32,000 bases of DNA from Nitrososphaera viennensis EN76 (GCF_000698785.1 NZ_CP007536.1:720001-752000), one strand, 5' to 3'; shown: positions 9,150 through 32,000, counted from the first letter of the stretch. Numbers and translations: made by a program. The notes: a model not told the origin generated them from the letters alone.

Positions 9150-9155
9150 TGTCAG

Positions 9156-9192
9156 CATCATCATAGTCATCGTTGTCATCATCATTATCATT
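9156..9192. repeat. ATC/GTC/ATT triplet repeat (reverse complement of the GAT-type repeat)
   Basis: catcatcatagtcatcgttgtcatcatcattatcatt, at or just beyond the 3' end of the wHTH gene. Its reverse complement resembles the 13377-13409 repeat. Confidence 0.8.
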
Positions 9193-9502
9193 GTAGCTTG
9201 CCGCTCTCCCTTGGAAACAGAGCCTCGTAGGGCTCCAGTATCTCATTCAGTATCGCCCTGCCTTTTTCTGACAGCTTGTATTTTATTATCGTCTTGTTGC
9301 CCCACAGTTCCTCGAACCTCGTCAGCAGGCCCTTTTCAACCATGTCGTCGATTATCACCTTGTGCTTGACGTTGTTAAGCCCGCAGTAGCTCATCAGCTT
9401 GCTCTGGTTGAGCTCGCCGTATTCTGACAGTTTCAGCATGATGTCTTTGCGAATGTAAATCCTGTCGCGGTATTCGTGGACCAATTTAACCAGGTTTTCC
9501 AA
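9188..9502 (-). CDS. Small winged-helix transcriptional regulator (archaeal HTH_45-like)
   Basis: 104-aa protein. Pattern RKDIMLKLSEYGELNQSKLMSYCGLN ... MVEKGLL ... YKLSEKGRAILNEI matches small archaeal wHTH proteins. TTG start. Confidence 0.7.
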   Translation of the reverse strand: MENLVKLVHEYRDRIYIRKDIMLKLSEYGELNQSKLMSYCGLNNVKHKVIIDDMVEKGLLTRFEELWGNKTIIKYKLSEKGRAILNEILEPYEALFPRESGKLQ

Positions 9503-9639
9503 GCTTGGCGGCTGTCAGTACAGGATCAACGGGGTTAGCAAATTTGTTGCTGTCAGCAGGAAGAAGCGGCATGACCATTAGTAGCACCATAGTCCAATCT
9601 TACTAAAAGGGCTTTTTGGCGGAAGTAGATTAAGGGTAT

Positions 9640-9653
9640 GGTAACTAAGTTAC
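9640..9653. promoter_or_regulatory. Second copy of the palindrome, GGTAAC-TAA-GTTAC, in the divergent region between the wHTH gene and gene 9702-10142
   Basis: ggtaactaagttac is read directly, about 20 nt upstream of ttaaaata (9674-9681). Confidence 0.4.
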
Positions 9654-9701
9654 GTGACTTTGGTTGACAACCGTTAAAATAATTCCTGTGCTTGTTTGTG
9701 C

Positions 9702-10142
9702 ATGGCAAAGAACGCAAGACTTGTAATTGCAAAGATACTGGCGGCGGCAACGCTTGCCTTGGTTCTGCCTTTTTTTGCAGGCGGCGTGCCGACGCTGCAG
9801 GCATGGTTGCTTGAGAACGGGTTTGGACCGGCGCTGCAGGCTGGGCTTCCGCCGGTGCTACAGCAATCGTTTGCACAGGTGTTTGGCTTGAGCGCGATAG
9901 TTCTGGCGACCACAGCGTTTGTCGTGTCGCTGGGGCAGAGGTCATTTCTGGTGGCAGGGTTGCTGGCTGCAAGTGGAGTGATCTTCATGATACCGGCGAT
10001 AATGGCTACAGGGTACTTTGCAGTCATCGTGTTTCCGGGCCCAATAATCGGAGTGATTCTGGGGCTTGGCATATTCGGGCTTGGCATCGCAAAGAGCGTA
10101 AGGACCGCAATGGCTACGCCGCTGGCAACCGCGCTGAGGTGA
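9702..10142 (+). CDS. Hypothetical polytopic membrane protein
   Basis: Four hydrophobic helices rich in A/G/L/V. ATG 9702 lies about 25 nt downstream of ttaaaata. The overlapping antisense ORFs look non-coding. Confidence 0.55.
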   Translation: MAKNARLVIAKILAAATLALVLPFFAGGVPTLQAWLLENGFGPALQAGLPPVLQQSFAQVFGLSAIVLATTAFVVSLGQRSFLVAGLLAASGVIFMIPAIMATGYFAVIVFPGPIIGVILGLGIFGLGIAKSVRTAMATPLATALR

Positions 10143-10152
10143 AATGATCAAG

Positions 10153-10180
10153 TGTCAAGAATCAACGGTCAAGAATCAAC
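10153..10180. repeat. Perfect tandem duplication of a 14-mer (GTCAAGAATCAACG x2)
   Basis: Read directly. It lies in the 50-nt gap between gene 9702-10142 and the GTG start of the SRPBCC gene. Confidence 0.9.
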
Positions 10181-10192
10181 GCCAGCCGCCAC

Positions 10193-10579
10193 GTGCCTGC
10201 GCCGGTGGACAGGGTGTGGGAGGTCGTCTCAGACGTTGACAGCGAGCCCAGGTACTACCCCGGCCTCAACTCTGTCAGGAACATCAGCAGGAACGGCAAC
10301 GTGATCGAAAGGGAGGTGACAGTCGGCTTTAGGGACTCGCGCGGAAAGCAGACCGTGATGCTGAACCCCAAGAGGTCGGTAGAGGTGATCATGAAGGAAG
10401 GCGTCATGACAGGCACGAGGACAGTCACGCTGACCCCCCTTGACGGTGGCACAAGGATCGACATTTCCTGGGACATAGAGGTGCCCGGCGTCCCTGCGCT
10501 GTTCAGGGGCAACGTGAAAAACCGCATTGCAAAAGGAACCGAGGAGGCGCTAGACAGGATTGCCAGAGCAGCTCAGTAG
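10193..10579 (+). CDS. SRPBCC (START/polyketide-cyclase-like) domain protein
   Basis: N-terminal pattern PAPVDRVWEVVSDVDSEPRYYPGL, about 130 aa, with the usual beta-rich middle and a C-terminal helix. GTG start. Confidence 0.7.
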   Translation: MPAPVDRVWEVVSDVDSEPRYYPGLNSVRNISRNGNVIEREVTVGFRDSRGKQTVMLNPKRSVEVIMKEGVMTGTRTVTLTPLDGGTRIDISWDIEVPGVPALFRGNVKNRIAKGTEEALDRIARAAQ

Positions 10580-10634
10580 TGGTAGCCTGGCGGCGCAGTC
10601 GCGCAGGCACGCAGCAGCTGGCCTGGCGATTCAC

Positions 10635-11021
10635 ATGGTCGGATTTGCGCTTGGATTCACGTCGATCGGGCTGGTCGTAGGCAGAGTCATCGACATGGAA
10701 TCGGGCCTTGCCGTGCTGACTCCTTTTGCAGACCTGCTGTACGGCCTTGGACTTGTCGTCATAGTGGCAGTCGCAGCCAGAGCCGGCGTCCCGATGAAGT
10801 ATTTGCTTGTAGCAGGGGCAGTGATTGGAGTAGGCCTCTTTTTCAAGTCAGCACCGCACGAGATCCACATTGCTTCCGGCATTGGGTTCGGGCTTGCACA
10901 CAATGGCCATATCGTAATAGGAACTATTCTGATAACCATCTCTGCAGTGGCGCCTGCAGTACTGGCGTTTGTCCACATCAGATCTGGATGGCAGAGAGCG
11001 CAGGAGAGGCAGGAGTCGTAA
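10635..11021 (+). CDS. Hypothetical membrane protein
   Basis: Four hydrophobic segments. The track start TTG 10560 overlaps the upstream gene, so ATG 10635 (MVGFALGF) is preferred. Confidence 0.5.
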   Translation: MVGFALGFTSIGLVVGRVIDMESGLAVLTPFADLLYGLGLVVIVAVAARAGVPMKYLLVAGAVIGVGLFFKSAPHEIHIASGIGFGLAHNGHIVIGTILITISAVAPAVLAFVHIRSGWQRAQERQES

Positions 11022-11048
11022 CAGCAACTCTAGGGTGATTTAGGATAC

Positions 11049-11255
11049 ATGTCGACAACAACAGGATCGAAATTTCCACACAGAAAAGACGGACAGGAAC
11101 ACTACCTAAACATATGGCCCGGAGTCGGGCACTCCGCGCTGGTCATGATCCCTGTAACGCCGGAAATCCAGGCGCAGCTCGATGCTATGACGGTCTATCT
11201 GCGAGAAGCGCTGACGGACAGTAATAATGAGGAAGACTTCAGCGAGGCCAGATAA
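11049..11255 (+). CDS. Hypothetical small protein
   Basis: 68-aa ATG ORF immediately upstream of, and apparently co-oriented in an operon with, the SHOCT protein gene. No motifs. Confidence 0.35.
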   Translation: MSTTTGSKFPHRKDGQEHYLNIWPGVGHSALVMIPVTPEIQAQLDAMTVYLREALTDSNNEEDFSEAR

Positions 11256-11256
11256 C

Positions 11257-11622
11257 ATGAGTGGGAACCAAGACTCAAACCGCATCAGGCGAATCGTAGG
11301 CTGGGGCATGATAGGATTGATAGCCGCAATAGGAATAGCTATTGTTCTATCATTCTACCTTGCACCCCGGCCGCCAGGAGCCTTCTATTTCTTCCCGTTT
11401 CATTTTGGCTGGCTGGGCGGCATCTTCTTGATATTCATAGTCTTTTGGATAGCAAGGTGGCTGCTCTGGCCTTGGAGGGGAGGAAGAGGCTACTATTACG
11501 CGTACCCATACCAGCAAAGGGCGGACGCCGTGTCAATTGTCAGGGAGAGGTATGCGAAAGGCGAGATCACAAAAGAGCAGTTTGAGCAGATGCTGCGCGA
11601 CTTGCGGCAGCAGGAGGACTGA
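11257..11622 (+). CDS. Membrane protein with C-terminal SHOCT domain
   Basis: Two TM helices, then RERYAKGEITKEQFEQMLRDL, which is the SHOCT short C-terminal motif. ATG 11257 follows the upstream stop by 1 nt. Confidence 0.65.
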   Translation: MSGNQDSNRIRRIVGWGMIGLIAAIGIAIVLSFYLAPRPPGAFYFFPFHFGWLGGIFLIFIVFWIARWLLWPWRGGRGYYYAYPYQQRADAVSIVRERYAKGEITKEQFEQMLRDLRQQED

Positions 11623-11672
11623 AGACATTGGCATACGCTGCAGACGGCATAAACGTACGAGGCGCAGAGTGC

Positions 11673-12053
11673 ATGAGCGTCGCGCTTGGCAGAAACAGCA
11701 GTAACAAAGGATTTGGAGGCGCCGCAGGCATTGCAAAGGTGCTTGGCAGGCGGTGGGCGCTTTTGATCCTTGAAAACCTGAGTGGCAGAGAAGCGGCGCG
11801 TTTTGACGACTTAAAGCGCGCCCTTGGAGGAATCAGCAGCACGGTGCTGTCAGAGCGCCTGAAGGAGCTGGAATGCAATAGCCTGATAGTCAAAAAGAGC
11901 TACAAGGGAAGGCCGCCGAGGATAGAATACAGGCTTTCAGACGGCACAAAAGAGCTTGAAGCCATCATGGATGAAATCGGCAGGTGGCAGGCGAGGTGGA
12001 AGAAAAAGAATAAGCCGCCGGCAGGAGACGCGATGAAAAGGCAATCGCTTTAA
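11673..12053 (+). CDS. HxlR-family winged-helix transcriptional regulator
   Basis: LGRRWALLILENL ... RFDDLKRALGGISSTVLSERLKELECNSLIVKK ... PRIEYRLSDGTKEL is the HxlR signature. The start is chosen at the first ATG; the track start is TTG 11628. Confidence 0.8.
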   Translation: MSVALGRNSSNKGFGGAAGIAKVLGRRWALLILENLSGREAARFDDLKRALGGISSTVLSERLKELECNSLIVKKSYKGRPPRIEYRLSDGTKELEAIMDEIGRWQARWKKKNKPPAGDAMKRQSL

Positions 12054-12134
12054 AGAGTTTCGGACCGGAAAAAATTTCTTGTGAAACTCATTTTAGATTT
12101 GGATCGATAACTATAACGGGTAAACAAACAGCAT

Positions 12135-13367
12135 ATGAGGATACTGCATCTTTCCCACGACGGCCTGCCGGATTGGCGGGTCGAAAAAGCGGCGCTGGCC
12201 TCATCAAAGCAAGGCTACGAGGTATTTTTTGCAGGGAAAAAAGTCGCCGGCGGATATGACACGTCAAAAATATTCAATCAGGCGTACGAGATAAACTGGA
12301 CGGCAAAGGCGCTCTATGGAATACCGTATTACTGGCATTCGGTAAGGAGCCAGCTTGCCAGGATACTCAAGCAGGTCAGGCCAGACGTGGTGCACGCCCA
12401 CAACCTCTTTTCGGCAAAGCTCGCCCAAGACCTTGGAGAGCATTTCGTCTACGACGACCACGAATCCTGGTCAAAGCATTCCCTCCTTCTGGGCGAAATG
12501 GAAGAAAAAGCAACAGCGGCGCAGCAGCAACAACAATACATCAGCAGCGCAAACGGCAGCGGCAGCAGTGGCAGTAGCCTGGTACATTCCATCAGGTCCA
12601 TGGCTGCGCGGACCAAGAGGACCGCGGTAAACCGCCATGCGACTAGTTTGTGGACAAAATGGGAGAAGGATGTCCTGGGCTCGTCGGCAGCGACCATCAC
12701 CGTCTCAAACAGGATCGCAAGAGAACTCAGGCTGGCCTCCGGGAATAATAATAATGCAAGGGTTGTCGTTGTCCCGAATTACCCGACGAGGCAGGAGACC
12801 AGCGGCCTGGACAGGCCAAGATACCTTGACAGGCTGTCCTCCGTCTACTCGGGAAGCGACGGCCAGAGCAACGGCGCCAAACTGCCCAACCGCAACATGG
12901 ACGGCCTCTACGACCTGTTTGATTCCAACGACAACAACAGCAATACAGGAAGGCTGACAATACTCGGCTGGCAGCAAGACGCCGATCCTTCCTCAAGGGT
13001 GAGATTCTCAGGGTTCCTCTCCAGAAAAGAGATGTTCAAGGAAATGTCAAACCATTCGATTGGGCTGCTGCCCTGGAAGCGGCACTGGTCCCATTACTTT
13101 GTCAATCCAAACAAGGTCTACGAATACGCCCACGCGGGCCTCCACGTGATGTGCACCTCTTCCTTTGAAACGGTGATAGAGACGCTGCAAGGAAACTGCT
13201 CGACATTTGATAACTACGAGGACCTGGCATCGCAGCTGGAATACTACAATGAAAACATGGACGAGCTTTACGAAAAGAGGGCCAGGACGTTTGAATTTGC
13301 GCACAGCAACCTGGTATGGGAGAATTTCGAGCCCGAGATACTCAGGTCCTACCAATTGACTGGCTGA
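12135..13367 (+). CDS. GT-B fold (GT4-like) glycosyltransferase with low-complexity inserts
   Basis: N-terminus MRILHLSHDG ... GYEVFFAG ... VHAHN and C-terminal NPNKVYEYAHAGLHVMCT resemble group 1 glycosyltransferases. Inserts QQQQQYISSANGSGSSGSS, GNNNNA and SNDNNSN are present. Confidence 0.65.
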   Translation: MRILHLSHDGLPDWRVEKAALASSKQGYEVFFAGKKVAGGYDTSKIFNQAYEINWTAKALYGIPYYWHSVRSQLARILKQVRPDVVHAHNLFSAKLAQDLGEHFVYDDHESWSKHSLLLGEMEEKATAAQQQQQYISSANGSGSSGSSLVHSIRSMAARTKRTAVNRHATSLWTKWEKDVLGSSAATITVSNRIARELRLASGNNNNARVVVVPNYPTRQETSGLDRPRYLDRLSSVYSGSDGQSNGAKLPNRNMDGLYDLFDSNDNNSNTGRLTILGWQQDADPSSRVRFSGFLSRKEMFKEMSNHSIGLLPWKRHWSHYFVNPNKVYEYAHAGLHVMCTSSFETVIETLQGNCSTFDNYEDLASQLEYYNENMDELYEKRARTFEFAHSNLVWENFEPEILRSYQLTG

Positions 13368-19180: not shown

Positions 19181-20308
19181 TTGCCAGAAGGCAAGAACAA
19201 AGGTCAAAGAGCACGGGTCTTCCAAGGAGGCGGCGCGCTTGGTGCCTACGAAGCCGGCACCTACCAACAGATCTATAAAAAAGTCAGCCAGGAAAACGCG
19301 GACGGCAGGCTGTTTGATATTATCACAGGTACTTCTATAGGGGCCATAAATTCCACGGTCTTGGTAGGACACTATCTCAGGAACAACAGCTGGAAAGGCT
19401 CTGCAGAGAAAATCTTGGAATTCTGGAAAGGACTTATGTGCACCACTATTGCGGATGATCTGTTCGGCAGGAACCCGTTTATCCGCAACTCATGGGACTA
19501 TTTACACGCGACCAATTCCGGCATAGCCGATACAGAAAGTGCCAGAAGGTTCTGGTCGATTTTCGAGTTTGCCTTCACCCCACGCGGGGTACCAAACATG
19601 TATGAATCTGTCCCAACATGGGGCTCCAAGTTCCTCAACCCGTTTACGGATTTCTTGCCGTGGTGGCGGTACGACTATAGGCAATTGAGGAGCTATCTTT
19701 CAAAGTTCGTCGATTTCCCCATAAAAACAAGTCTTGAAAAAGGACAGCCAAGATTGCTTCTCACCAGCGTTGACATTCAGGATTATGCGACACCGGTGGT
19801 ATTTGACAGCTATGAAAAACTGCATGACGCTTCCGTTAATGATGATGTTACCATTGACACAGCAAAAGAGGGAAAAAGTAAAAACAGCAGATGGTTTTCA
19901 GAATACGGAAATTCGGAAAACAGACACATTGTATTTTACGATGGAATCGGCCCAGATCAGGTGCTCGCAAGCGCTCTCGGCAAGTATGCTCTGGACCATC
20001 CTCAAATTGAGGATAAAGCAACTGGAACGGTACGGCAATTGTGGGACGGTGGATACCTAAGCAATACCCCGTTGCGTGAACTCTTGACAGCCCATAAAAA
20101 TTACTGGATGGAATATTTGCGAAAGAACCGTGGAGGCAGCCAAAAATCATTTACGCGGGCCCCAGAGCTTGAAGTGTACATCGTCAACCTGCATCCTCTG
20201 GCACCAAAGGATATTCCACAGGACAAGGATCTTATTGATGACAGAGAGAGAGTGATATTCTATTTCACGATAGGACTACGTACGATGAATACGTTGCGTA
20301 TGTCATGA
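19181..20308 (+). CDS. Patatin-like phospholipase, N-terminal catalytic part (frame-broken at its 3' end)
   Basis: Oxyanion motif VFQGGGALGAYEAG, nucleophile GTSIG (GxSxG) and catalytic Asp in WDGGYLSNTP. TTG start. The last 20 or so residues (VIFYFTIGLRTMNTLRMS) look out of frame. Confidence 0.8.
   Translation: MPEGKNKGQRARVFQGGGALGAYEAGTYQQIYKKVSQENADGRLFDIITGTSIGAINSTVLVGHYLRNNSWKGSAEKILEFWKGLMCTTIADDLFGRNPFIRNSWDYLHATNSGIADTESARRFWSIFEFAFTPRGVPNMYESVPTWGSKFLNPFTDFLPWWRYDYRQLRSYLSKFVDFPIKTSLEKGQPRLLLTSVDIQDYATPVVFDSYEKLHDASVNDDVTIDTAKEGKSKNSRWFSEYGNSENRHIVFYDGIGPDQVLASALGKYALDHPQIEDKATGTVRQLWDGGYLSNTPLRELLTAHKNYWMEYLRKNRGGSQKSFTRAPELEVYIVNLHPLAPKDIPQDKDLIDDRERVIFYFTIGLRTMNTLRMS
20243..20252 (+). 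repeat. (AG)5 dinucleotide repeat at the patatin frameshift site
   Basis: The sequence acAGAGAGAGAGtgat is read directly. Adding one AG unit joins the two patatin reading frames. Confidence 0.9.
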
Positions 20309-20949: not shown

Positions 20950-21282
20950 GTGAGTTTACCTGAACTTCCTGACCCAATAGGCCGTTTCGTCGATGCGGTC
21001 AACCGAGGCGACACAGGGTCTTTTCTTGACTTTTTTCCTAGCGATGGCGTGGTGGATGACTCTGGGCGGCGCTTCGTTGGTCATGAAGCCATCCGGCGCT
21101 GGAGCGACCGGGAGTTCATCGGTGCAAAAGGGCGCATGACTGTTACAAGTGTCGAGCAAACGAAGAAGAACATAGTCAGCGTCGCGGCTGATTGGGCAAG
21201 CAACTACTTTACGGGTCCCAGCCGCTTTGTTTTTGTGCTCAAAGGCAAAAAAATTCAAGAGATCCGCATCATGAGCGTGTGA
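20950..21282 (+). CDS. NTF2/SnoaL-like domain protein
   Basis: FVDAVNRGDTGSFLDFFPSDGVVDDSGRRFVGHEAIRRW is the typical SnoaL-like N-terminal pattern. 110 aa, GTG start. Confidence 0.6.
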   Translation: MSLPELPDPIGRFVDAVNRGDTGSFLDFFPSDGVVDDSGRRFVGHEAIRRWSDREFIGAKGRMTVTSVEQTKKNIVSVAADWASNYFTGPSRFVFVLKGKKIQEIRIMSV

Positions 21283-22979: not shown

Positions 22980-23228
22980 GTACATGCGCGCGTCCATAAG
23001 AGAAATAATGCGAGTTGTAGGATTCATGCATGTGTTTTTACTAGTAAGAGAGTTCAAATTTGATTGGACCCATCTTAATGAGTGGGCATATACAAGACTC
23101 CTCGGATTTGTGATTTTACGTTGATTGATGAAGAAGAATTTTCACCATATTTAGCGTATTGGCACCAATTATTAGAGATAGATCGTGTTGCTTATATCGA
23201 ACATACTTAGTATTTGCTATAATAACGC

Positions 23229-24218
23229 TTGACCGCTGTTCCCAAAGAACTCATCTATGTTGTAATCAGTAGTGGACTCCTTGTGGTTGTGGGGACCGCA
23301 ATGTGGGAGTTAATTCGATTGCCTGATGTTGGCATGGGGACAAAGGATTCAACTCTTGATGGCAATACACTCAACTCGACATTTTATATGAAGAACAACG
23401 GCCTGCTTACAGTGCACAATGTCCGCGTTACCCTCAATTCAAATGTCGAATTACTAGATATTCAAGAGGGATTCCACACAGAAAAATTTGACATCGTTGC
23501 CAATGGTGAAAGGTCGATAATAATCGACGCACCTAGGCTTTCTACTCAAACCGAAATCGATTTGCGGATTTCAATGAATATAACAGGAAGCAAGAACATA
23601 ACGTTGAAGGGATTTGCGTCATACGATGAGAAAAGCAACATTGTCGAGCTAGAATACAACCGATCTAATCAAGAGTTTGCTCCAAGTATTTTCACCTTTC
23701 TAACCTTCATCATCACCATCCTTTTCATAATACTGGTTGTAGTAATAGTATCTCTAGTTGTCATCACCATCTATGTCATAAGACGGAAACGACGATTTGA
23801 CAGATTGCGCACGGCATTAGACAGCATATCAGAACTTGGAAATTCTTTTAACAAAACAAAAGAGAAATTTGTTGAAGTTATAGAACAGGAAATATCAAGA
23901 GCAAATGCCCAACTTTCCAAAGACATTACAAATAAGACTATACTTTCAACGGATATCTGGGATAAGGCATCACAGAAATGGAAAAAGACATTCTTTGAAG
24001 ATAATGATTATGAAATAGTAAATAGATTCTATACAGAGACAAGAAGAAGAAACGTAAAGGTTGAAACTGCGCCTGATAAGTTGACTGAAGACGAATTGCG
24101 AGTACTAAATCAGGAGTGTTATTATTTATCCCGATTGGCTCTGAATGATGTGCGTTGGCCTCTAAAAAAACAGGGCGAACCCAACAAAAACCAATTTCGG
24201 ATAAATCAACTTAGATAA
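23229..24218 (+). CDS. Hypothetical 2-TM membrane protein (beta-rich ectodomain, cytoplasmic helical/coiled-coil tail)
   Basis: 329-aa ORF in AT-rich DNA with a TTG start. It has an N-terminal TM, an N/T/S-rich roughly 130-aa segment, a long second TM (IFTFLTFIITILFIILVVVIVSLVVITIYVI) followed by RRKRR, then a K/E-rich tail. Confidence 0.5.
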   Translation: MTAVPKELIYVVISSGLLVVVGTAMWELIRLPDVGMGTKDSTLDGNTLNSTFYMKNNGLLTVHNVRVTLNSNVELLDIQEGFHTEKFDIVANGERSIIIDAPRLSTQTEIDLRISMNITGSKNITLKGFASYDEKSNIVELEYNRSNQEFAPSIFTFLTFIITILFIILVVVIVSLVVITIYVIRRKRRFDRLRTALDSISELGNSFNKTKEKFVEVIEQEISRANAQLSKDITNKTILSTDIWDKASQKWKKTFFEDNDYEIVNRFYTETRRRNVKVETAPDKLTEDELRVLNQECYYLSRLALNDVRWPLKKQGEPNKNQFRINQLR

Positions 24219-24246
24219 CCTAACAAATCCCGATGTTGGATTGTGA

Positions 24247-24423
24247 TTATTTGTTAATCTTCCTGAAGACCTTTTGATATACTCTAATTGTTTTCCCCGC
24301 TGAAAGTTTCTTTTGTTGATACCATAGCCCGGATTTGCTGATGCCTAGTCTCTTCCTCTCATCTGGAGTTATTGAAAGTATACGCTGGGAAATCTCCAAA
24401 TTATCATTCCTCTTGATCACCAT
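24247..24423 (-). pseudogene. 58-codon HTH-like ORF, probably the 3' remnant of a frame-broken gene
   Basis: My translation is MVIKRNDNLEISQRILSITPDERKRLGISKSGLWYQQKKLSAGKTIRVYQKVFRKINK, with an HTH-like core LGISKSGLWYQQKK. An upstream ORF in another frame (..MNAKSYFKIEMPLTKLFFRITCERLPILLLARVSGLILMCPHGDQEE) ends overlapping its start. Confidence 0.3.
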
Positions 24424-24862
24424 GCGGGCACATCAAAATCAATCCGCTTACTCTTGCCAATAACAAAATAGGCAATCTCTCGCACGTTATTCTAAAGAAT
24501 AGTTTGGTAAGTGGCATTTCTATTTTGAAGTAGGACTTTGCATTCATGTTCAACTTTACCTTTTCAATCAAAACATTAGCCGTCCGTTCTTTGAGCCGGA
24601 CATGGTAGTTCTGTCACGACGAAATCCGATTTCTTTAACCTCTTCTTTTCTTCCAGCAGCTGTATAACTAACAGGTCAGCAGCCTACCGGAACAACTCTT
24701 GCAAGTCATATTATACTAACGACTCTTTGCTTTCATCAAGTTCATCCAAGAAACCGATTGCAGGGCCTGACCTGATAGCATATACGCTTGCGCAAGCCTC
24801 TGCGCTATAAAAGAACTAACAGCAAGATCTACAACTACGCTTGTATTTGTAGTCCACTGGAA

Positions 24863-24885
24863 ACGCGCACGCACATATACATGTA
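24863..24885. repeat. Perfect alternating purine-pyrimidine tract (23 nt)
   Basis: acgcgcacgcacatatacatgta, in the decayed AT-rich region. Confidence 0.85.
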
Positions 24886-25080
24886 AATAAGGTGCGGGGG
24901 GTGCGATATAAGGATTGAGTTCGGTGCGGTGGATCTGCTTTCCCGAAATTATTGACCCAACCCGATGATTCTATGGTCGAACTGGACATAATAAGAAGAA
25001 AAGACTGAAATCGTCAGTGAATGGGAATGACGTTTTCATCACCCGTGACATCTTCAGGTTGCAGAATGTCAACGAATCAC

Positions 25081-25152
25081 GGGCCGAGATAGATAGCTTT
25101 ATTTTGGCGCGCTATAGGTCAATCGCCACGAGTTCAAATCCCTCTGGGCCCG
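25081..25152 (+). other. tRNA-like remnant / pseudo-tRNA (intact T-loop, 3' T-stem and acceptor 3' strand; degenerate 5' two-thirds)
   Basis: The 72-nt segment is GGGCCGA...GAGTTCAAATCCCTCTGGGCCCG. The ends pair 6 of 7 as an acceptor stem and TTCAAAT is a canonical T-loop. The D arm, anticodon arm and 5' T-stem cannot be folded. Confidence 0.3.
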
Positions 25153-25200
25153 CTACTCTTTAGTATCGGAACCCTGCTTTTTGACCCGTTAGCCATGCTC

Positions 25201-25443
25201 CTAACATAGGAGTTTCAAAATATAAACATGCTTGTAAAAAGCTGTGTTAGGAGCCACCTTTGTATTGGTCAAAAACATTATACGTCCCTTTCTAAGGCAC
25301 CGGACAGCAATGTTTTCGCGCATGGCGTCGCCTTCCTGCTTGGCATCGGCGTAGTAATGGGCCGCGAACATCTCCCTTCGTTCAAAAAAGCCGCGATACC
25401 GAATATCGGAACGGATCCAAAATGAACGAGCCAAAACCTGCAA
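25201..25443 (-). CDS. Hypothetical ORF next to the tRNA-like remnant (coding status doubtful)
   Basis: 80-aa track ORF with no motifs I can support. It lies in AT-rich decayed DNA. Confidence 0.2.
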   Translation of the reverse strand: MQVLARSFWIRSDIRYRGFFERREMFAAHYYADAKQEGDAMRENIAVRCLRKGRIMFLTNTKVAPNTAFYKHVYILKLLC

Positions 25444-25469
25444 AGCAAGACTAGGAAAAGACTAAATCA

Positions 25470-25787
25470 TTGTCAGAATTTCCTTCGTCTGTGGCACAAG
25501 GCGTCCTTATCGATAATGATATTCTTGGTTGGGCTAATAGTCATGAAGATGAGCTCATAAGGATTTACGGCAAGATCGTAAAAGTTGGATCCCCAGATAT
25601 TCCGCGGAGGCAACCAGACCACCTGCTTGCTGCATACTGCAAAGACCGTGATTTCGATATGCTAACTCGCGACAATAAGGCTTACACGTATTATTTTACC
25701 GCCGGCATCAAGACAGTGCAACTATCAAGATATGATTGGGATAAGAAAGGAGACAAGCCAGTCTACCTAATCAAAATTATAGATTAG
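25470..25787 (+). CDS. PIN-like (DUF5615/Mut7-C-like pattern) domain protein
   Basis: GVLIDNDILGW ... PDHLLAAYCKDRDFDMLTRDNKAY ... follows the pattern llDenl ... D..ll..a ... lvT.D.df of small PIN-like nucleases. TTG start. Assignment rests on the pattern only. Confidence 0.4.
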   Translation: MSEFPSSVAQGVLIDNDILGWANSHEDELIRIYGKIVKVGSPDIPRRQPDHLLAAYCKDRDFDMLTRDNKAYTYYFTAGIKTVQLSRYDWDKKGDKPVYLIKIID

Positions 25788-25805
25788 CCGTCAGGCTTCA
25801 GCTAA

Positions 25806-26063
25806 TTATTTGATTTTCATCAGGAACTTTCCTCGCAGCCAATTCTGTATGTTCCACATTAAGCTGGCAGTTGACAGAACAGTGCCGGTCCTTTCTAAGA
25901 CGCTATAAAATGTCGACTCTGCCGGTATGTATTGTTGTACCAGCATAGATACGAAGTAAAGCGATACTACTGAAATCGTGACGATTGTCGCATATCTGGC
26001 CAGCATGTGCGGGCGCGACCGCTTTCCTCGTGTCCCAGAGCTGCGACGTCTTCTGTTCGGCAC
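25806..26063 (-). CDS. Hypothetical small membrane protein with Arg-rich N-terminus
   Basis: 85 aa: MPNRRRRSSGTRGKRSRP followed by one clear TM (YATIVTISVVSLYFVSMLV). Confidence 0.35.
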   Translation of the reverse strand: MPNRRRRSSGTRGKRSRPHMLARYATIVTISVVSLYFVSMLVQQYIPAESTFYSVLERTGTVLSTASLMWNIQNWLRGKFLMKIK

Positions 26064-26220
26064 TGCAAGTCCATTCCACTCGTCAGCTTAAAAGAGCTGT
26101 TCAAAAAAACAGTTTTATTCAGGCGACTATATAAAAAATATCTAATAGGAACCGGACTACTATCAATAAAATAACTTTTTTGTACTTCCCGCCTTTGCCA
26201 AAAAGTTTTTTTAGACAAGG

Positions 26221-26236
26221 TTTATCTATAAAATAT
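26221..26236 (+). promoter_or_regulatory. TATA-like box of the wHTH-pAgo operon
   Basis: tttatctataaaatat ends 16 nt before ATG 26252, consistent with a leaderless or short-leader archaeal transcript. A near-identical box (ctatataaaaaatatct) lies about 96 bp upstream at about 26128-26145. Confidence 0.4.
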
Positions 26237-26251
26237 CTTTATCATGGGTCG

Positions 26252-27076
26252 ATGTCTGCTTTGAGTTTGTATGACGACGAGGATGCGCGGGAGCAGAGAA
26301 CGAGGAAACCCCGAAAAGAGGTGCTAGATGATGCAGCGGACGCCTTTGCGGCTGTCTTCGGCCAGTCTGCAAAGACCCGGATATCAATCCTGCGCGTGTT
26401 GCGGCGGAGCATTAACCCACTGAGATACAAAGACCTGTTGAATAGCGTGCGGTCCGAACTCGGCGGGGGCGAAATGCTGAGCGAACAGAATTTTAACTAT
26501 CACATCAAGGACCTCAAGAAGTTTGGAGTTGTCGATCAGGACATTACCAGCAAATATATTATCACTACCTTGGGTGCCCTTCTACTTTCTGCGTATGAGC
26601 AGGTTAGAAGTCGGACAGGTGGAGATAGCGTCAAGGACAAGCCAGGCTTCGTAGGCGAGCTGAACGTTATTATGCAATCATCGCAGTTTGATGCGGCCGC
26701 TCTTGGAGAGGAGCTCATAAGGCAGCAGCTCTTTATGCCAGTCCCTTCGGCTGACGGGTCGGTCGCCCTTAAGTGGAGAGACGATGACGAAAGCATCGAC
26801 TCAGAAATAGAGTTGCATCAAGACGGAACAATATATGTCAAAGTCATTGTTTACGAAAAGCTGGCGCAGATCGCAGGCTATCAGAGCGAAGATCTTGACA
26901 AGGCCAGCCCGTGGTATGACACGGTAATTTCGCTCGCCAAAGCAATGTACTACTATGTGAGCCGGGCCGCTAGAAGACTTTGGCCTGACGTTCATGACGA
27001 GATAACCATCGAGGACTCTTACCCAATAAACCGGTTCCTGCCGACAGCAAAGCGCAGTGTTGAGGAGAGTGAGTAG
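26252..27076 (+). CDS. ArsR-like winged-helix protein with uncharacterised roughly 150-aa C-terminal domain; pAgo-associated partner
   Basis: Acidic/basic N-terminal tail, then TRISILRVLRRSINPLRYKDLLNSV ... NFNYHIKDLKKFGVVD (ArsR/SmtB-type wHTH pattern). A C-terminal domain with no motif I recognise follows. The stop TAG 27074-27076 is 2 nt before the pAgo ATG. The track start TTG 26180 is judged too long. Confidence 0.75.
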   Translation: MSALSLYDDEDAREQRTRKPRKEVLDDAADAFAAVFGQSAKTRISILRVLRRSINPLRYKDLLNSVRSELGGGEMLSEQNFNYHIKDLKKFGVVDQDITSKYIITTLGALLLSAYEQVRSRTGGDSVKDKPGFVGELNVIMQSSQFDAAALGEELIRQQLFMPVPSADGSVALKWRDDDESIDSEIELHQDGTIYVKVIVYEKLAQIAGYQSEDLDKASPWYDTVISLAKAMYYYVSRAARRLWPDVHDEITIEDSYPINRFLPTAKRSVEESE

Positions 27077-27078
27077 TC

Positions 27079-29397
27079 ATGGAAAGACAACTCTCCAGCT
27101 ACCAGATCAACCTCTTCAGGTACGAAGGTAAGCCGTTCGAGTCAGGCGTGACCTTGGCGGTCTACAAACCGAAAAACGAGGTCCCAGAAGACAAGCTCTT
27201 CCTAGTAGGCCAGGCTACAAAAGCAGTACAGGACAATGCAGGCGAAGGTGCTGTTGCATTCCAGTACGGAACCACTGTTTACTGCTTGTCCAAGATGCCA
27301 AGCAACCTGAAGGATTCGATACCTGTCGCTGACAGCTACAGTAAGGAGATCAACATTTGGTACAGAAACCAAGACCATGTCGCTCACCCAAGCAACCAAA
27401 GTGACCGAGAACTGCTCAGGCGGCTCGTGGCGAAAGCGATCAGCAACCAGCACATACAGAACAAATGGTTTGTCGAGCAGTACAAGATGGTATATCATTG
27501 GTCATTCAGGCTGTCTGAACAGCTATCGCATGGGAAGTTCGAAGTTTACCACGGGTTCGTATTCAGACCTTACATCTACGAGGATGGAACATGCGCCGTC
27601 CTCCTCGACCCAAAATTCAAGTTCGTGCTCAAAGAGACGTTGAGGGATTACATTGCAAGCCTGGAACAGCAGGGCAAGACGAGAGAGGAAATCGAATACA
27701 TCTTGCGCGGAGAGCAGGTAATAGACCACTGTCCAGTCATCGACTGCATGCACCGTAATAACCCTGAAAGCGATTGCAGGCTAAAGGGTTCTGGCAAGAG
27801 GAGGCTGCTTACCGGGCTTGACTTTACACGTAAACCCACGGCGTCGGGTCATGGCGACTTGCTGCAATATCATAGAAACGTAGTATGTAAGAACAATGGA
27901 AAAATTGCGGACATGATGCAGGACTCTGCACCAATTGCGATGATCCAGTTCCCTAATACACCAAGACCGTACGACTACCCGCTGGAAAGGCTCAGGCGCG
28001 AAGTCAGGATGCACGACCTTGATAAAATCGGAAGGATAAAGGTCATGGAATACATGCGGCCGTCGATGGTCAGCCGCTGGAATATGACAAAATCGTTCAT
28101 CCAGTATGTCGACAACGTACCTCTGGCCAACCTTACATTAAGAATATCAAGAGATTTTTCCCAAGCAGGCGAAAGGGGATTCCCGTGGGAGAACTTTGAA
28201 ATGTTGCCCGATGTTCCCCTGGCGTTTGCAAAAGGAAAAGAAGACACCGACCCCATGAGAGGGCTCGAAGAGAACGGTCCTTTTGACCTGAATGATGAAA
28301 GGATAACAAACGTCGAATTCACGATCTATTGTTTTTCAAGAAGGGTGACGCTAGAGCAGATCGAAGAGTTCTACAACGATTTGACAAACGGCTTCCAGGG
28401 CAGACCCCTGTTCAAAGGTTTCCACAGCCTCTTCAACGTCAGGGCGCCGAAATTCGACAAGTCGATGGTCAAGTACAAAATAGAACTGCCACCGCCGCCC
28501 CAAAAAGCAGGGTCAAAAAAATTCGCCTTGGTGATCGTGCCTGCGATATCATTCAAGAAGGCGAAGGAGTACATGCCATTGAAACAACTATTCGTCAAGA
28601 ATGGCATTCCAAGCCAGTTCGTGTTGTCGCAGAATATTGCGCCCGACCTGACTCCGTCGAAATACGTCGGCATCTTGAAGAACCTGGCATTAGAGATTTA
28701 CGCAAAGATAGGCGGAACCGCATGGGCCTTGAGCAGGCCGACAGGAGACGGCAAATGCTTCATCGGAGTCGACTCCATTACGCGGAAAAAGGTCACATAC
28801 TTTTCTGTGCAGGTGTTCAACGGACGCGGCGTATGGATCTGTGGCTGGACTAGGTCTGTCCCCGCTGAGCAATATGGCAAATCTTTACAGGACACTCTCA
28901 CAAACGCCATCAGAATATTTGCAAAGACCCAAGGTGCAATAAAAGAGGTCGTTGCGCATAAGGAAGGCAATGTGTGGAGCTCGGAGACAGATGCAATAAA
29001 GAGTGCGACAGCCCATCACAAGACTAGAGTGGTATCGATAATCAAGACAGGAATAATGCGCGTCTATGACAAATCGAAACAGGACAACATAACAAACCGC
29101 GGGCTCTTCGTAGAATTAGACAAGAATGAGGCCCTGCTAGTCACCAGCGGACCACCACATCCAATACAAGGTTCGCAGAAGGCTCTGACTGTCAGAGTCG
29201 CTTCAGGCTTGGATGGAACGACACTTAAGGACATATGCAACGATGTTTTCCTTCTCTCGACAAGCTACGGAGGATACATTCTGGCTGCAACTTCGAAACC
29301 CGTCACTACGTACTATGCAAATAAAGCAACCAGCATATCTGCCCAAAATGGGCTTGAAGTGTCTGATGATCTTTGGAGAAGCACCTGGTTCATTTAG
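27079..29397 (+). CDS. Long prokaryotic Argonaute (N-L1-PAZ-like-L2-MID-PIWI), predicted slicer-deficient
   Basis: MID/PIWI hallmarks are EYMPLKQLFVKNGIPSQFV (Y498, K502, Q513), LKNLALEIYAKIGGTAWAL (K543) and CFIGVDS (D565). VVAHKEGN replaces the RDG motif (E629). PVTTYYANKA replaces YYAH/YYAD (N748). At 772 aa there is room for N and PAZ-like regions. Confidence 0.9.
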   Translation: MERQLSSYQINLFRYEGKPFESGVTLAVYKPKNEVPEDKLFLVGQATKAVQDNAGEGAVAFQYGTTVYCLSKMPSNLKDSIPVADSYSKEINIWYRNQDHVAHPSNQSDRELLRRLVAKAISNQHIQNKWFVEQYKMVYHWSFRLSEQLSHGKFEVYHGFVFRPYIYEDGTCAVLLDPKFKFVLKETLRDYIASLEQQGKTREEIEYILRGEQVIDHCPVIDCMHRNNPESDCRLKGSGKRRLLTGLDFTRKPTASGHGDLLQYHRNVVCKNNGKIADMMQDSAPIAMIQFPNTPRPYDYPLERLRREVRMHDLDKIGRIKVMEYMRPSMVSRWNMTKSFIQYVDNVPLANLTLRISRDFSQAGERGFPWENFEMLPDVPLAFAKGKEDTDPMRGLEENGPFDLNDERITNVEFTIYCFSRRVTLEQIEEFYNDLTNGFQGRPLFKGFHSLFNVRAPKFDKSMVKYKIELPPPPQKAGSKKFALVIVPAISFKKAKEYMPLKQLFVKNGIPSQFVLSQNIAPDLTPSKYVGILKNLALEIYAKIGGTAWALSRPTGDGKCFIGVDSITRKKVTYFSVQVFNGRGVWICGWTRSVPAEQYGKSLQDTLTNAIRIFAKTQGAIKEVVAHKEGNVWSSETDAIKSATAHHKTRVVSIIKTGIMRVYDKSKQDNITNRGLFVELDKNEALLVTSGPPHPIQGSQKALTVRVASGLDGTTLKDICNDVFLLSTSYGGYILAATSKPVTTYYANKATSISAQNGLEVSDDLWRSTWFI

Positions 29398-29741
29398 CCC
29401 TATGCGAATTTGCCGAAAAGCTAACACCCTTAGGAGTGAAAGAATAAGGCAAGTAGTTGTAGAGTATCAGGCAAAATGGCACTCCTATGTGCTGTGTTTG
29501 GGCTTGTTGAAGTACTTGAAGCCATCTCATAAATGGCTCGCTACCAAAAACCGAGTAGTGGGGAACCAAAATCCAAGGAAAAACGGTCTTCAGTTCAGCT
29601 ATTGCCTTATTTTTGACTGTTGAGATGACTTCTAGGTACTCGTAGCTAACCAGTCGGCATTCCTACTTCCTTGTAAGGTACAGGTCTATCAGCCGGAATA
29701 TCGTGATTACACCTGCAAAGATCTGTTGCTTCTACCGTGGC

Positions 29742-29758
29742 TTTTTTCTATAAAAATC
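29742..29758 (+). promoter_or_regulatory. TATA-like box upstream of the small-protein/ATPase operon
   Basis: ttttttctataaaaatc lies about 40 nt upstream of ATG 29797, with aggag at 29791-29795. Confidence 0.35.
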
Positions 29759-29796
29759 TAGAATGGTTTTATAGAAACGTCATTCTGTATAGGAGT

Positions 29797-29961
29797 ATGG
29801 CGGATGTTTATGACCGGCTTTTCGAAAATCTGTCAAAAGATATACCCAACGATGATACCATTGCGCTACTAAAGGAACTGCTCGGAGTCTATCGCAGCGA
29901 GGGTGTCGACGGAGTCACCCAGAGCCTGAAAGAACGTCTCGAGAAGCTCAAAGGAGATTGA
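29797..29961 (+). CDS. Hypothetical 54-aa helical protein upstream of the SMC-like ATPase
   Basis: MADVYDRLFENLSKDIPNDDTIALLKELLGVYRSEGVDGVTQSLKERLEKLKGD. The track start GTG 29737 lies inside the TATA-like box, so ATG 29797 is preferred. The stop is 12 nt before the ATPase ATG. Confidence 0.4.
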   Translation: MADVYDRLFENLSKDIPNDDTIALLKELLGVYRSEGVDGVTQSLKERLEKLKGD

Positions 29962-29972
29962 CTGGCAGAGAA

Positions 29973-32000
29973 ATGGCAGTAGTCATAAGATCCGCCAAGA
30001 TTGACAGTTTCAGAGGAGTAAACACTGAACGCACCGTCACGTTTTCACAGGGCGTCACGCTTATCCATGGCCTCAACGGCATGGGCAAGACCACGGTTTT
30101 ACAGGCAATCGAGTGGTGTCTGACTGGCGAGATCCCAAGTTTTGAAGGGCCAGACTTTAAGGAAGAGGATGCCATCGTAAATTGCTTCACGGACAAGAAA
30201 TCCGCGTCTGTTATCCTTACGCTAGAAGATACCACTTCCAACAGAATCATGACGGTGGAGCGCCGACGCAGGCGGTCCAAGAGCTCAAGCACAACCAAGA
30301 CCAATACCTCGCTCAAGGTAGGGATTGACGGCAAAGAGTATGAAAATGATCGTGCGGTGGAAATTCTTTCGCAGTTGCTCGGTGTGGGTCTGGAAGACCT
30401 TGCAAAGAACACGTACATCCGGCAGGATGCCATTGACCAATTACTCCATGAAAAGCCGGAGGAGAGGTCCCGGGCCCTCGACACGATCCTCGGCACCGAC
30501 AAGATTCGGGGGTTCCTGGATGCCATCAACGTAAGCACTTCGAGGACCAGAAATTCACTCAAAGAAAAGATAGAGGGGATCGAGATAGGCAGGGTTCAGA
30601 TTGCAACAGCGCTGCAGGAAGAGGCCGAGGAGACAAAGAACCGGCTGCTGGCTGGGGGGATGCACAAAGAAGACCTTAACTTGCAGCAGGCCGTCAAATC
30701 TGCGGGCTCCCTCTTTGATAAGATAACCAGTCTGGCCACTGCAGTTGGCGCCAGACCGCCTGCAAAGGCGGCTATACCCGCTGACCCTTCCGAGCTCTAC
30801 GAGAGCCTCGAGAAGTATGCAAAGGATGCCGATGAAATAGACCGCGCAAGACAGGAAGTTCACTCACAAAAGTCTAACCAGATAGCCAAAATCTCAGCAC
30901 CGATGAGCTCTCTGCAAGGACTCCGGGAAGGGCTGCAACAGTACAGTGGCAAGGACGTGTCATCACTACGCGGCAGTCTGGTTCAGAAGGAGAATGAGCT
31001 GCGCGGAATTGCCGAAGAGCGGACAGCAATATCCCGAGAAATTGCGCGCCTTGGCAGTAATTCCCGAGCCATCGACAATGCGCTCAGGGACTATGAAAAT
31101 GCTAGGCTACAGCTCGACCAAGTCGCTGGAGGGCAAGATGTTCAGGCGCTGAAGAAGGAGGAAGCGGAACTTCAGGCACAGCACAGTTCCAACCTTGCTC
31201 AGCAGAATGAGGCTCGTATCACGGCAGAATCACTTGGTAAGACATTTGAAGAACTGGACAGGCTCGTAACTTCCTACCGGTCAGGTGTTGAGCAGATATC
31301 GTCGCTTGGATTCGACTCTGCGGATGGCAGAGGCACGCAACAGATAGAGTCACTGCAGGCATCCATAGATGAAATGAAGTCCAAGTCAAAGGAGGCCGGC
31401 GAGAAGCAGGTCAGGCTTGCAGGTCTGGTCTCGGAGCTTCGAACAAGCAGTTCTACCATCGCATCTGTTCGGCGCACCGCAGAAGAGCTTGAGGCAAAGA
31501 TATCCGCGTCGATCCAAAAGTTTGGCGATACTGAGGCAAGAACAAAACTCCAGGAGCAAAAGTCATCCAGCCTTCGGGAAATAAAACAATCGCTTGATTC
31601 CTTTAACACATACGATAGCCTCGTCGGGAAGGCAATGGAGTATATCCGTACGGTCCGGCCTCTAAACTGCCCTCTCTGCGAGAGGCCTTCAGAACCGGAC
31701 CATCTTCTGGCATTACTAAACTCAAAGGTGAAAGGTGATATTGCCAAGAAGATTCAAGACCTCTCTGCAAAGGCCACGCAAGAAAGCGAATACCTTGACG
31801 AGCTGGCAAAAGATACAGACGCGCTTTTGGGATATAGAAGGGACCTGGAAGTGCAAAAGACAAGGATTGCTGTCGAACTTTCCCGGCTATCGACCTTGTT
31901 AGGGGTTACAGTTAATGCCGACTTTGATTTTGAAGGAAAAATAAAAGAGCTATTGAAAGAGGCAGATTCTGCCCGGAGCCTTGCAATGGAGTTAGGGGGC
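29973..32000 (+). CDS. SMC/Rad50/SbcC/DndD-like ABC ATPase with coiled coil and CxxC hook (5' partial; continues beyond the window)
   Basis: Absent from the ORF track because it has no stop in the window. I read 676 codons from ATG 29973 without a stop. The N-terminus is IRSAKIDSFRGVNTERTVTFSQGVTLIHGLNGMGKTTVLQAIEWCLTGE (Walker A). More than 500 aa of E/K/L/Q-rich coiled coil follow, with RPLNCPLCERP (C566, C569) as a hook-like motif. Confidence 0.85.
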   Translation, partial: MAVVIRSAKIDSFRGVNTERTVTFSQGVTLIHGLNGMGKTTVLQAIEWCLTGEIPSFEGPDFKEEDAIVNCFTDKKSASVILTLEDTTSNRIMTVERRRRRSKSSSTTKTNTSLKVGIDGKEYENDRAVEILSQLLGVGLEDLAKNTYIRQDAIDQLLHEKPEERSRALDTILGTDKIRGFLDAINVSTSRTRNSLKEKIEGIEIGRVQIATALQEEAEETKNRLLAGGMHKEDLNLQQAVKSAGSLFDKITSLATAVGARPPAKAAIPADPSELYESLEKYAKDADEIDRARQEVHSQKSNQIAKISAPMSSLQGLREGLQQYSGKDVSSLRGSLVQKENELRGIAEERTAISREIARLGSNSRAIDNALRDYENARLQLDQVAGGQDVQALKKEEAELQAQHSSNLAQQNEARITAESLGKTFEELDRLVTSYRSGVEQISSLGFDSADGRGTQQIESLQASIDEMKSKSKEAGEKQVRLAGLVSELRTSSSTIASVRRTAEELEAKISASIQKFGDTEARTKLQEQKSSSLREIKQSLDSFNTYDSLVGKAMEYIRTVRPLNCPLCERPSEPDHLLALLNSKVKGDIAKKIQDLSAKATQESEYLDELAKDTDALLGYRRDLEVQKTRIAVELSRLSTLLGVTVNADFDFEGKIKELLKEADSARSLAMELGG

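Follow-up and report, generated by a model that had tools for sequence, protein, structure and literature searches.

In a 32,000-nucleotide (nt) stretch of Nitrososphaera viennensis EN76 DNA (NZ_CP007536.1:720001-752000; the whole stretch is called the window here, and N. viennensis positions are counted from its first letter), the gene of a full-length prokaryotic Argonaute (pAgo) directly follows the gene of a 274-amino-acid (aa) protein, termed the partner, in which an ArsR-like winged helix-turn-helix (wHTH) is joined to a domain specific to its family. Comparison of the loci that carry both genes showed that they are one tightly coupled unit, inherited together across Nitrososphaeria, Bathyarchaeia and Asgard-type lineages. 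Our favoured reading, to which we give an even chance, is a new pAgo module of the long-B class with the partner as its dedicated DNA-binding component, acting in autoregulation or as a sensor.

Gene layout and joint inheritance of the pair

The original prediction, made from the window alone, had placed a 274-aa open reading frame (ORF) at 26252-27076, ending 2 nt before the pAgo ATG, and this layout was confirmed to the base. According to the ORF list and the raw sequence, the partner gene runs from an ATG at 26252 to a TAG at 27074-27076, and only two nucleotides ('tc') separate its stop codon from the pAgo ATG at 27079. Both proteins recur with identical sequences in N. viennensis record CP104300.1 (NCBI) and in a mock-community metagenome. 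A GGAG had also been predicted upstream of the pAgo start; the motif is present within the 3' end of the partner gene, at a distance of 11 nt and not of about 12 nt. A 298-aa version of the partner, starting at TTG 26180, is unlikely, because the conserved TATA-like box TTATCTATAAAAT falls inside that frame; in four related loci, its distance from the ATG is constant at 25-26 nt. Downstream of the pAgo gene, a 400-nt gap is followed by a separate promoter-like element and a Lamassu LmuB-like gene; the Argonaute operon is therefore composed of two genes. Its features are:

26167-26213, no strand: inverted repeat, candidate operator (TAAAATAACTTTTT, 19 nt, AAAAAGTTTTTTTA), whose right arm abuts the transcription factor B recognition element (BRE)/TATA region
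26222-26234, plus strand: TATA-like box TTATCTATAAAAT; its TATAAAA core starts 25 nt 5' of the partner ATG
26252-27076, plus strand: partner gene, 274 aa
26315-26617, plus strand: partner winged helix, residues 22-122, ArsR-like with four helices, a two-strand wing and a fifth helix (AlphaFold2)
26633-27037, plus strand: partner C-terminal domain (C-domain), residues 128-262, with a strand, a helix, four strands, a long helix and a final strand (AlphaFold2)
27064-27067, plus strand: Shine-Dalgarno-like GGAG motif
27079-29397, plus strand: long-B pAgo gene, 772 aa, N-L1-PAZ-L2-MID-PIWI (ORF, Pfam and PADLOC matches, AlphaFold2, Foldseek)
27730-27888, plus strand: four-cysteine cluster C218, C223, C233 and C270 in the PAZ region, a signature of the pAgo lineage
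28276-28722, plus strand: MID domain with conserved Y498/K502/Q513/N535/K543, a YK-type pocket for a 5'-phosphate guide (alignments)
28723-29325, plus strand: PIWI domain without a conserved DEDX tetrad

The partner family is rare. When 1.84 billion protein representatives were searched exhaustively with an HMMER profile, about 12 full-length members were retrieved, and the remaining matches (>100) were limited to the winged helix, with no relatives of the C-domain outside the family. Downstream DNA was readable in 19 loci, and in each of them the partner was immediately followed on the same strand by a gene for a pAgo of the same lineage; three further partner contigs that end too early for a neighbour call were left out of this count. 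With L-numbers as labels of the loci whose genomic context was retrieved, the pair is distributed as follows:

N. viennensis: 1 of 19 loci
Nitrososphaerales-type metagenome contigs (L001, L176, L177): 3 of 19
Bathyarchaeia-type loci: 8 of 19, three of them on contigs of named Bathyarchaeia/Bathyarchaeota metagenome-assembled genomes (MAGs)
Odin-type branch, named for the Odinarchaeota MAG contig JAGGXT010000122 that carries L168: 5 of 19, with pAgos 26-28% identical to that of the window
The most distant loci (L178, L179): 2 of 19, with the pAgo split into two genes

All taxonomically assigned members are archaeal, and most of the loci are unassigned metagenome contigs. Profile hidden Markov models (HMMs) of the full-length partner and of its C-domain gave no match in about 155 loci fetched for more distant pAgos, and the C-domain model matched only ORFs adjacent to a pAgo. 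As the original prediction would have it, the partner was kept upstream of every homologous pAgo for which upstream DNA was available, down to 26-28% pAgo identity and including the two split pAgos. The partner stop and the pAgo start overlapped (TAATG, ATGA) or lay at most 11 nt apart in 12 of the 13 complete loci; at the thirteenth junction, in L010, the pAgo start is ambiguous. Pairwise identities of partners and pAgos were strongly correlated (r = 0.93 over 78 pairs, Mantel p ~2e-4), and the divergence of the C-domain tracked that of the pAgo slightly better than did the divergence of the winged helix (r = 0.96 versus 0.90). The flanking genes differed completely from locus to locus, and the conserved unit is therefore the pair and not a larger island.

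The association persists where the Argonaute itself is divided. In L178 (2070-5210) and L179 (6001-9111), a gene for the N-L1-PAZ part (387-392 aa) and a gene for the MID-PIWI part (423-427 aa) overlap at their stop and start codons. Within this lineage, the two genes would be the product of a fission, or would preserve a split state that is ancestral. An AfAgo-like identity of the MID-PIWI half was rejected, as AfAgo was missing from its PDB sequence matches.

The product of the second gene is an Argonaute (Pfam Piwi, E = 7e-13; PADLOC pAgo models, E = 1e-59). Its AlphaFold2 model, built with 19 homologues, has a predicted local distance difference test score (pLDDT) of 85 and a predicted template-modelling (TM) score of 0.82. 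It superposes over ~800 columns on CpAgo, CbAgo, AaAgo, TtAgo, HrAgo1 and RsAgo (Foldseek E = 1e-35 to 1e-30, TM-score 0.60-0.68), and the protein is therefore complete, with the order N-L1-PAZ-L2-MID-PIWI. This protein (WP_075054206.1, 772 aa) was catalogued in 2018 as a long-B pAgo with a normal PAZ, a 'YK-putative' MID and no tetrad, with domain limits of 184-314 for PAZ, 400-548 for MID and 549-749 for PIWI (Ryazansky et al. 2018 supplement and table, PMC6299218). Long-B is used here as this published label; the top matches in the PDB, by sequence and by fold, are long-A proteins (CpAgo, CbAgo and AaAgo), with RsAgo close behind. In the alignment with CpAgo, the D of the RDG motif corresponds to E629 of the N. 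viennensis protein and the last aspartate of the tetrad to N748. All four tetrad positions vary freely within the lineage, and the N. viennensis set D566/E597/E629/N748 is non-canonical; judging by these residues, the enzyme is probably non-cutting. The cysteines C218, C223, C233 and C270 are invariant in 19 members of the clade and are also found in alignments of the Odin-type pAgos, of L173 and of the N-terminal halves of the split proteins. Together they probably make up a structural zinc site, a hallmark of the lineage, and we know of no description of such a four-cysteine site in the PAZ domain of a pAgo.

The partner protein and its promoter

The AlphaFold2 model of the partner was built from a 7-sequence alignment and has a mean pLDDT of 75, with most 10-residue blocks inside the domains at 73-94. 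Its winged helix consists of helices 22-36, 40-52, 59-70 and 78-90, strands 94-96 and 102-104, and helix 106-122, which is the order alpha1-alpha2-alpha3-alphaR-beta-beta-alpha5 of the ArsR/SmtB type; residues 31-120 mostly have block values of 73-92, and residues 21-30 are at ~60. Pfam returned DUF7347 (E = 1e-4), HTH_45 and HTH_20, all below threshold (22.6 bits against a curated cut-off of 27.6 for DUF7347, 11.9 against 27 for HTH_20), and NCBIfam returned no match. Since the sequence scores under the curated family thresholds, the protein is ArsR-like in fold only. Two of its homologues carry the JGI annotation 'ArsR family'.

For the C-domain, the order of elements in the model resembles that of the TATA-binding protein (TBP)-like fold, which we take to be the two-layer beta-alpha-beta(4)-alpha topology of SCOP d.129. 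Foldseek matches of the partner in the PDB and BFVD were weak and mixed (TM-score 0.15-0.29 when taken over the full query). In the PDB, the top matches were a Roco COR domain and a CENP-N chain, and IclR-type regulators and the N-domain of spermine synthase were found further down. A recurring class, which we presume to belong to the TBP-like fold, comprised the phosphoglucomutase C-domain, Bet v 1/SRPBCC proteins, KA1 domains, the NRD of RnlA, a viral TATA-binding protein and phage MotA. None of the Foldseek matches listed was a nuclease, a SIR2, TIR or APAZ protein, a membrane protein or any pAgo effector.

Sequence libraries agreed with this picture. No match to a nuclease, SIR2, TIR, PLD or transmembrane family was found for the partner in Pfam, PADLOC or NCBIfam, and its C-terminal half matched nothing in these three libraries. 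PADLOC gave no Aga or APAZ match, no Argonaute or APAZ structure was among the best 50 Foldseek PDB matches listed, and a PDB sequence search returned only noise. A WYL domain gave no Pfam match at E <= 1, and the topology of the C-domain differs from the SH3-like WYL fold. Thus, an ArsR-type winged helix followed by a C-terminal domain without nuclease, SIR2, TIR, PLD or transmembrane signature, as originally described, was borne out by Pfam, PADLOC, NCBIfam and AlphaFold2, and the lack of a link between this domain and any known pAgo effector held in Pfam, NCBIfam, PADLOC, PDB sequence, Foldseek (PDB, BFVD) and exhaustive HMMER searches. At the level of topology, the model presents the partner as an ArsR-like winged helix plus a family-specific, putatively TBP-like domain with no enzymatic signature. 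A PD-(D/E)xK nuclease, suggested by an alpha-beta-beta-beta-alpha-beta-like order and conserved acidic residues in the C-domain, was rejected: the candidate E185 is a serine in the Odin-type branch, and no nuclease fold was matched.

The inverted repeat lies 39-85 nt 5' of the partner ATG. In an alignment of nine loci (the window, L001, L176, L002, L009, L010, L012, L090 and L091), whose partners are 31-55% identical to that of the window, the two arms are conserved (consensus AAATAAyTTTTTTGT and CAAAAAAGTTTTwTA) and the spacer of ~15 nt is not. For a relaxed pattern (TTTTTG-N10-24-CAAAAA), 0.17 chance matches are expected per 32 kb. The four Nitrososphaerales-type loci (the window, L001, L176 and L177) share the TATA-like box at similar spacing, 25-26 nt before the ATG, which suggests that it is the TATA element of a leaderless or near-leaderless mRNA. 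At this position, the palindromes of other branches are different ones: that of L173 is perfect and 30 nt long, that of L178 has arms of 28 nt, and those of the Odin-type loci have arms of 16 nt. Site and partner therefore change in step. The only other match to the relaxed pattern in the window, at 21230-21251 in the intergenic space between a 202-aa and a 122-aa ORF, is probably due to chance, although it could be a second binding site.

Two Odin-type loci, L168 and L170, are mosaics of each other. Over positions 7800-12100, their DNA is 95-100% identical in the pAgo and primase genes, 73-86% in the partner gene and less than 60% upstream, and the break in identity sits at the partner/pAgo junction. 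At the protein level, the pAgos are 97% and the partners 69% identical. The mosaic would reflect recombination, or else rapid evolution that was limited to the block of partner and promoter. Since the break coincides with the gene junction, promoter and partner move as one exchangeable block. The conserved palindrome, its lineage-specific variants and the L168/L170 block are what would be expected, though not proof, if the partner recognises its own promoter.

Readings of the role of the partner

Under the favoured reading, the partner would bind the promoter palindrome as a dimer and so set the transcription of its own operon, and a cassette moving between hosts would thereby bring its own regulator along. 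The C-domain would serve as the input, sensing either the Argonaute itself or a nucleic acid or ligand made when the guide-loaded pAgo meets its target, so that expression, and possibly DNA binding elsewhere, would be tied to Argonaute activity. The Argonaute would act by guide-directed binding instead of cleavage. We infer a role of the module in defence. The original prediction had left the partner as a sensor, regulator or effector subunit; the conserved palindrome favours the first two of these over the last.

Several points weigh against the partner being a regulator of this kind. The arms of the palindrome are A/T-rich, and short A/T palindromes are frequent in archaeal intergenic DNA. 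In the Bathyarchaeia loci, where a divergent gene starts, the arms could instead be a pair of BRE/TATA promoters placed back to back. The fold of the C-domain rests on the weak Foldseek scores given above, and the family is small, with its ~12 full-length representatives. That the C-domain and the pAgo diverge together points to a possible physical contact between them. Furthermore, regulators of defence systems are normally shared by many systems, and fidelity to a single gene through deep divergence and fission is unusual for a regulator; the pattern therefore fits a structural subunit equally well.

Such a subunit is the strongest alternative, though we consider it clearly less probable. 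The partner would be an obligate structural part of the Argonaute complex, with the C-domain docked on the pAgo and any binding to the promoter incidental; the winged helix, and possibly the TBP-like domain, would bind duplex nucleic acid for guide acquisition, for target search on double-stranded DNA or for retention on an invader. This would account for the strict one-to-one co-occurrence through deep divergence and pAgo fission, for the overlapping stop and start codons, which favour coupled and near-equimolar synthesis, and for a C-domain that occurs nowhere else and whose divergence follows the pAgo at r = 0.96. There is also a precedent in other long-B pAgos that are fused to lambda-repressor-like or Schlafen/AlbA DNA-binding domains (Ryazansky et al. 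2018, PMC6299218). However, a structural subunit does not predict lineage-specific conserved palindromes beside the promoter. Moreover, L168 and L170 combine 69%-identical partners with 97%-identical pAgos, with the breakpoint exactly at the junction, and tight co-adaptation of an interface is therefore not required. The regulatory and structural roles are not mutually exclusive.

That the partner is itself the effector is improbable. In such a scheme, it would, once released or activated upon target recognition by the pAgo, bind DNA broadly or compete with TBP at promoters, shutting down transcription or replication and leading to an arrest resembling abortive infection. Characterised catalytically inactive pAgos do depend on a co-encoded effector (Song et al. 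2023, PMC10620215), no conserved enzymatic effector was found beside the pAgo in the Nitrososphaerales-type loci, and the topology of the C-domain appears TBP-like, with a viral TBP and MotA among its weak fold matches. On the other hand, the effectors of the BPAN, BPAS and BPAM systems are encoded downstream of the pAgo (PMC10620215), whereas the partner gene comes first. No toxic-domain signature was detected in the partner by Pfam, PADLOC or Foldseek, the fold matches that suggest TBP are weak, and a constitutively co-translated DNA-binding toxin would require tight inhibition.

That the partner is an ordinary transcription factor without a functional tie to the Argonaute, adjacent to it through the common descent of a few related genomes, has been all but refuted. 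The known sequences number no more than some dozens and many loci come from related Bathyarchaeia MAGs, but the pair is kept at 26-28% pAgo identity in three archaeal phyla or classes, with wholly different flanks, an overlapping junction and a family never seen without a pAgo.

We also regard as possible, with rather low confidence, that the inactive Argonaute signals through a transcription factor, i.e. that target recognition is passed to the wHTH/TBP-like partner, which would change transcription from promoters of the module, the host or the invader, or sit on the targeted DNA. If so, prokaryotes would have a counterpart of Argonaute-directed transcriptional silencing that occurs in Thermoproteota and Asgard archaea and is older than the pAgo fission.

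To our knowledge, every characterised catalytically inactive pAgo switches on a co-encoded nuclease, NADase or membrane effector. The recurrence of the pair across several archaeal phyla suggests an Argonaute module that works without any known killing enzyme, and the lineage offers a minimal and evolutionarily robust two-gene case, in which the sole constant companion is a predicted DNA-binding protein without an enzymatic domain. If the partner is a pAgo-coupled regulator or DNA-binding subunit, this would be a new output mode for prokaryotic Argonaute immunity, together with a new protein family and a variant of the PAZ domain that probably bears zinc. The module has a member in a cultivated ammonia-oxidising archaeon and relatives in archaea of the Asgard type.

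Surrounding genes and relation to known systems

Some loci carry additional genes next to the pair:

25806-26006, minus strand: small putative membrane-protein ORF of N. viennensis, ~66 aa from an internal ATG (the ORF extends to 26063), divergent from the operon
L002 2264-4127, L009 3406-5158, L010 738-2631, L011 3225-5199, L090 2058-3732 and L091 3388-5059, minus strand: conserved divergent gene pair of the Bathyarchaeia loci
L168 10977-11855, L170 10971-11858 and L173 3262-4146: PriS-like primase gene in a three-gene wHTH-pAgo-primase operon

The small ORF was called by gene callers on two contigs (L007 and L008) and not in L177. Its C-terminal 32 residues match a divergent 84-aa gene of L001 (7281-7595, minus strand; pairwise BLASTP E = 1e-6), and it has a basic N-terminus, one hydrophobic helix and a motif, F..LLE...S.A..WN...WLR, that is shared with L001. 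It could be a membrane accessory of Nitrososphaerales-type modules, or noise. The Bathyarchaeia pair encodes a protein of 150-200 aa and one of 427-455 aa with an invariant HExxH, E230, D234 and H266-P267. Neither had a match in the libraries, including Pfam Peptidase_M78, and the profile of the HExxH protein found nothing meaningful in the PDB or PADLOC. The HExxH protein may be a novel metallopeptidase; an ImmA/CapP-like role would be a guess by analogy. In the Odin-type branch, the primase gene overlaps the pAgo stop codon (Pfam E = 1e-12, TIGR00335 E = 4e-21). None of these additions is universal among the loci. If the partner is a regulatory or sensor component, the HExxH protein in Bathyarchaeia, the primase in the Odin-type branch and perhaps the small membrane protein in Nitrososphaerales would be lineage-specific extra outputs.

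In N. viennensis, the operon sits in a defence island, with a patatin-like gene and the LmuB-like gene as neighbours. The latter encodes a Lamassu LmuB-like SMC ATPase of 1120 aa (PADLOC E = 1e-55), which starts at 29973, leaves the window and is complete in L004 (13722-17084). Within the window (29737-32000), the promoter-like TTTTTTCTATAAAAATC and a 54-aa ORF (29797-29961) precede it, and four unannotated genes follow it in the genome; this is a defence unit separate from the adjoining pAgo operon. Further upstream, the gene of a patatin-like phospholipase (19181-20308; Pfam Patatin, weak PADLOC phospholipase-effector matches) overlaps the 202-aa ORF (to 20913), and the two may be another defence pair in the island. 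The GC content is 0.38-0.45 at 23000-26000, compared with 0.50-0.58 elsewhere in the window, which suggests recently acquired DNA just upstream of the pAgo operon; this segment holds a predicted 329-aa membrane protein (23229-24218) and a 105-aa ORF (25470-25787) without a family match. Rfam found no RNA families in the window. In L001, its closest metagenomic relative, the module is flanked by a helicase/DUF1156/DUF499 cluster upstream (83-7047) and by an HD-domain gene (dGTPase-like, HD_assoc_2; 11318-12691) downstream, which are defence-type genes unrelated to the flanks in N. viennensis. A ThiF/BilD-like gene cluster lies upstream of the module in L179.

A description of the pair was not found in the literature on the N. 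viennensis Argonaute, on wHTH or winged-helix partners of pAgos or on archaeal pAgo operons, and neither the Asgard Argonaute paper nor the Guaymas paper mentions it. Nor was 'PprPIWI', the name of a PADLOC model, found as a term in the literature, and a MUT7-C paper that names N. viennensis concerns a different protein. The proposal of an undescribed system was supported, with caveats: the partner family, the strict coupling and the palindrome are new, but the pAgo had been catalogued and the enrichment of the HTH class was known (PMC6299218).

In the BPAN, BPAS and BPAM systems, an effector gene (nuclease og_15, SIR2 og_44 or transmembrane og_100) lies directly downstream of the pAgo in the same operon, and the long-B pAgos of the 'other/none' group remain unexplained (Song et al. 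2023, PMC10620215). Like these systems and RsAgo, the N. viennensis module has a full-length long-B pAgo without the tetrad and with a conserved MID pocket for a 5'-phosphate guide, and like BPAN, BPAS and BPAM it lies in a defence island as a simple operon in which one associated protein co-evolves with the pAgo. It differs from the three in that the associated gene is upstream and encodes a winged-helix protein with a predicted TBP-like fold, not a nuclease, SIR2 or membrane protein, and in that the pAgo lineage has the conserved four-cysteine PAZ cluster and its assigned members are archaeal. The short pAgo/APAZ systems (SPARTA, SPARSA, SPARDA) combine a protein of MID-PIWI only with an APAZ partner, whereas the pAgo here is full-length and its partner has no APAZ match.

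BrxR/CapW (wHTH-WYL) and the repressor-protease pairs CapH/CapP and ImmR/ImmA are regulators of defence operons, shared among many unrelated systems. The N. viennensis module recalls them in having an HTH protein at the head of a defence operon, a palindromic promoter site and a C-terminal domain that would serve as input. The HExxH neighbour in the Bathyarchaeia loci brings to mind the protease logic of CapP and ImmA, although it has no match to Pfam Peptidase_M78. Unlike BrxR/CapW, the partner has no WYL domain and its family is confined to one pAgo lineage.

HTH proteins are enriched in pAgo neighbourhoods (orthogroups og_18/49/73/79; Ryazansky et al. 2018, PMC6299218), and the same survey describes long-B fusions in which, as here, a DNA-binding module is associated with an inactive long pAgo. 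The partner would differ from these in belonging to another HTH family; it is a separate gene where the fusions are not, and it has an extra family-specific C-domain.

Among split archaeal Argonautes, AfAgo is accompanied by an N-L1-L2 protein, and SiAgo acts with Aga1 and Aga2. The present lineage is likewise split in L178 and L179, and the small membrane ORF of N. viennensis and L001 recalls Aga2, but the pAgo of the window is full-length and its partner belongs neither with the N-L1-L2/APAZ proteins nor with membrane proteins.

AgaPP is a bacterial PrimPol of the VirE-N type, encoded 2-8 genes away from a pAgo on an integrative element (PMC11724360). The N. viennensis locus differs in having no primase, whereas the Odin-type branch resembles AgaPP in that a gene of the archaeo-eukaryotic primase (AEP) superfamily, PriS-like, overlaps the pAgo stop codon.

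As had been predicted, the architecture is unlike that of the described systems of inactive pAgos: no nuclease, SIR2 or transmembrane effector is encoded downstream, and the only constant companion is the wHTH protein. The pAgo was already known. New are the family to which the partner belongs, the strict coupling of this family to a single lineage of archaeal pAgos, the palindrome at the promoter and an Argonaute operon that does without an enzymatic effector.

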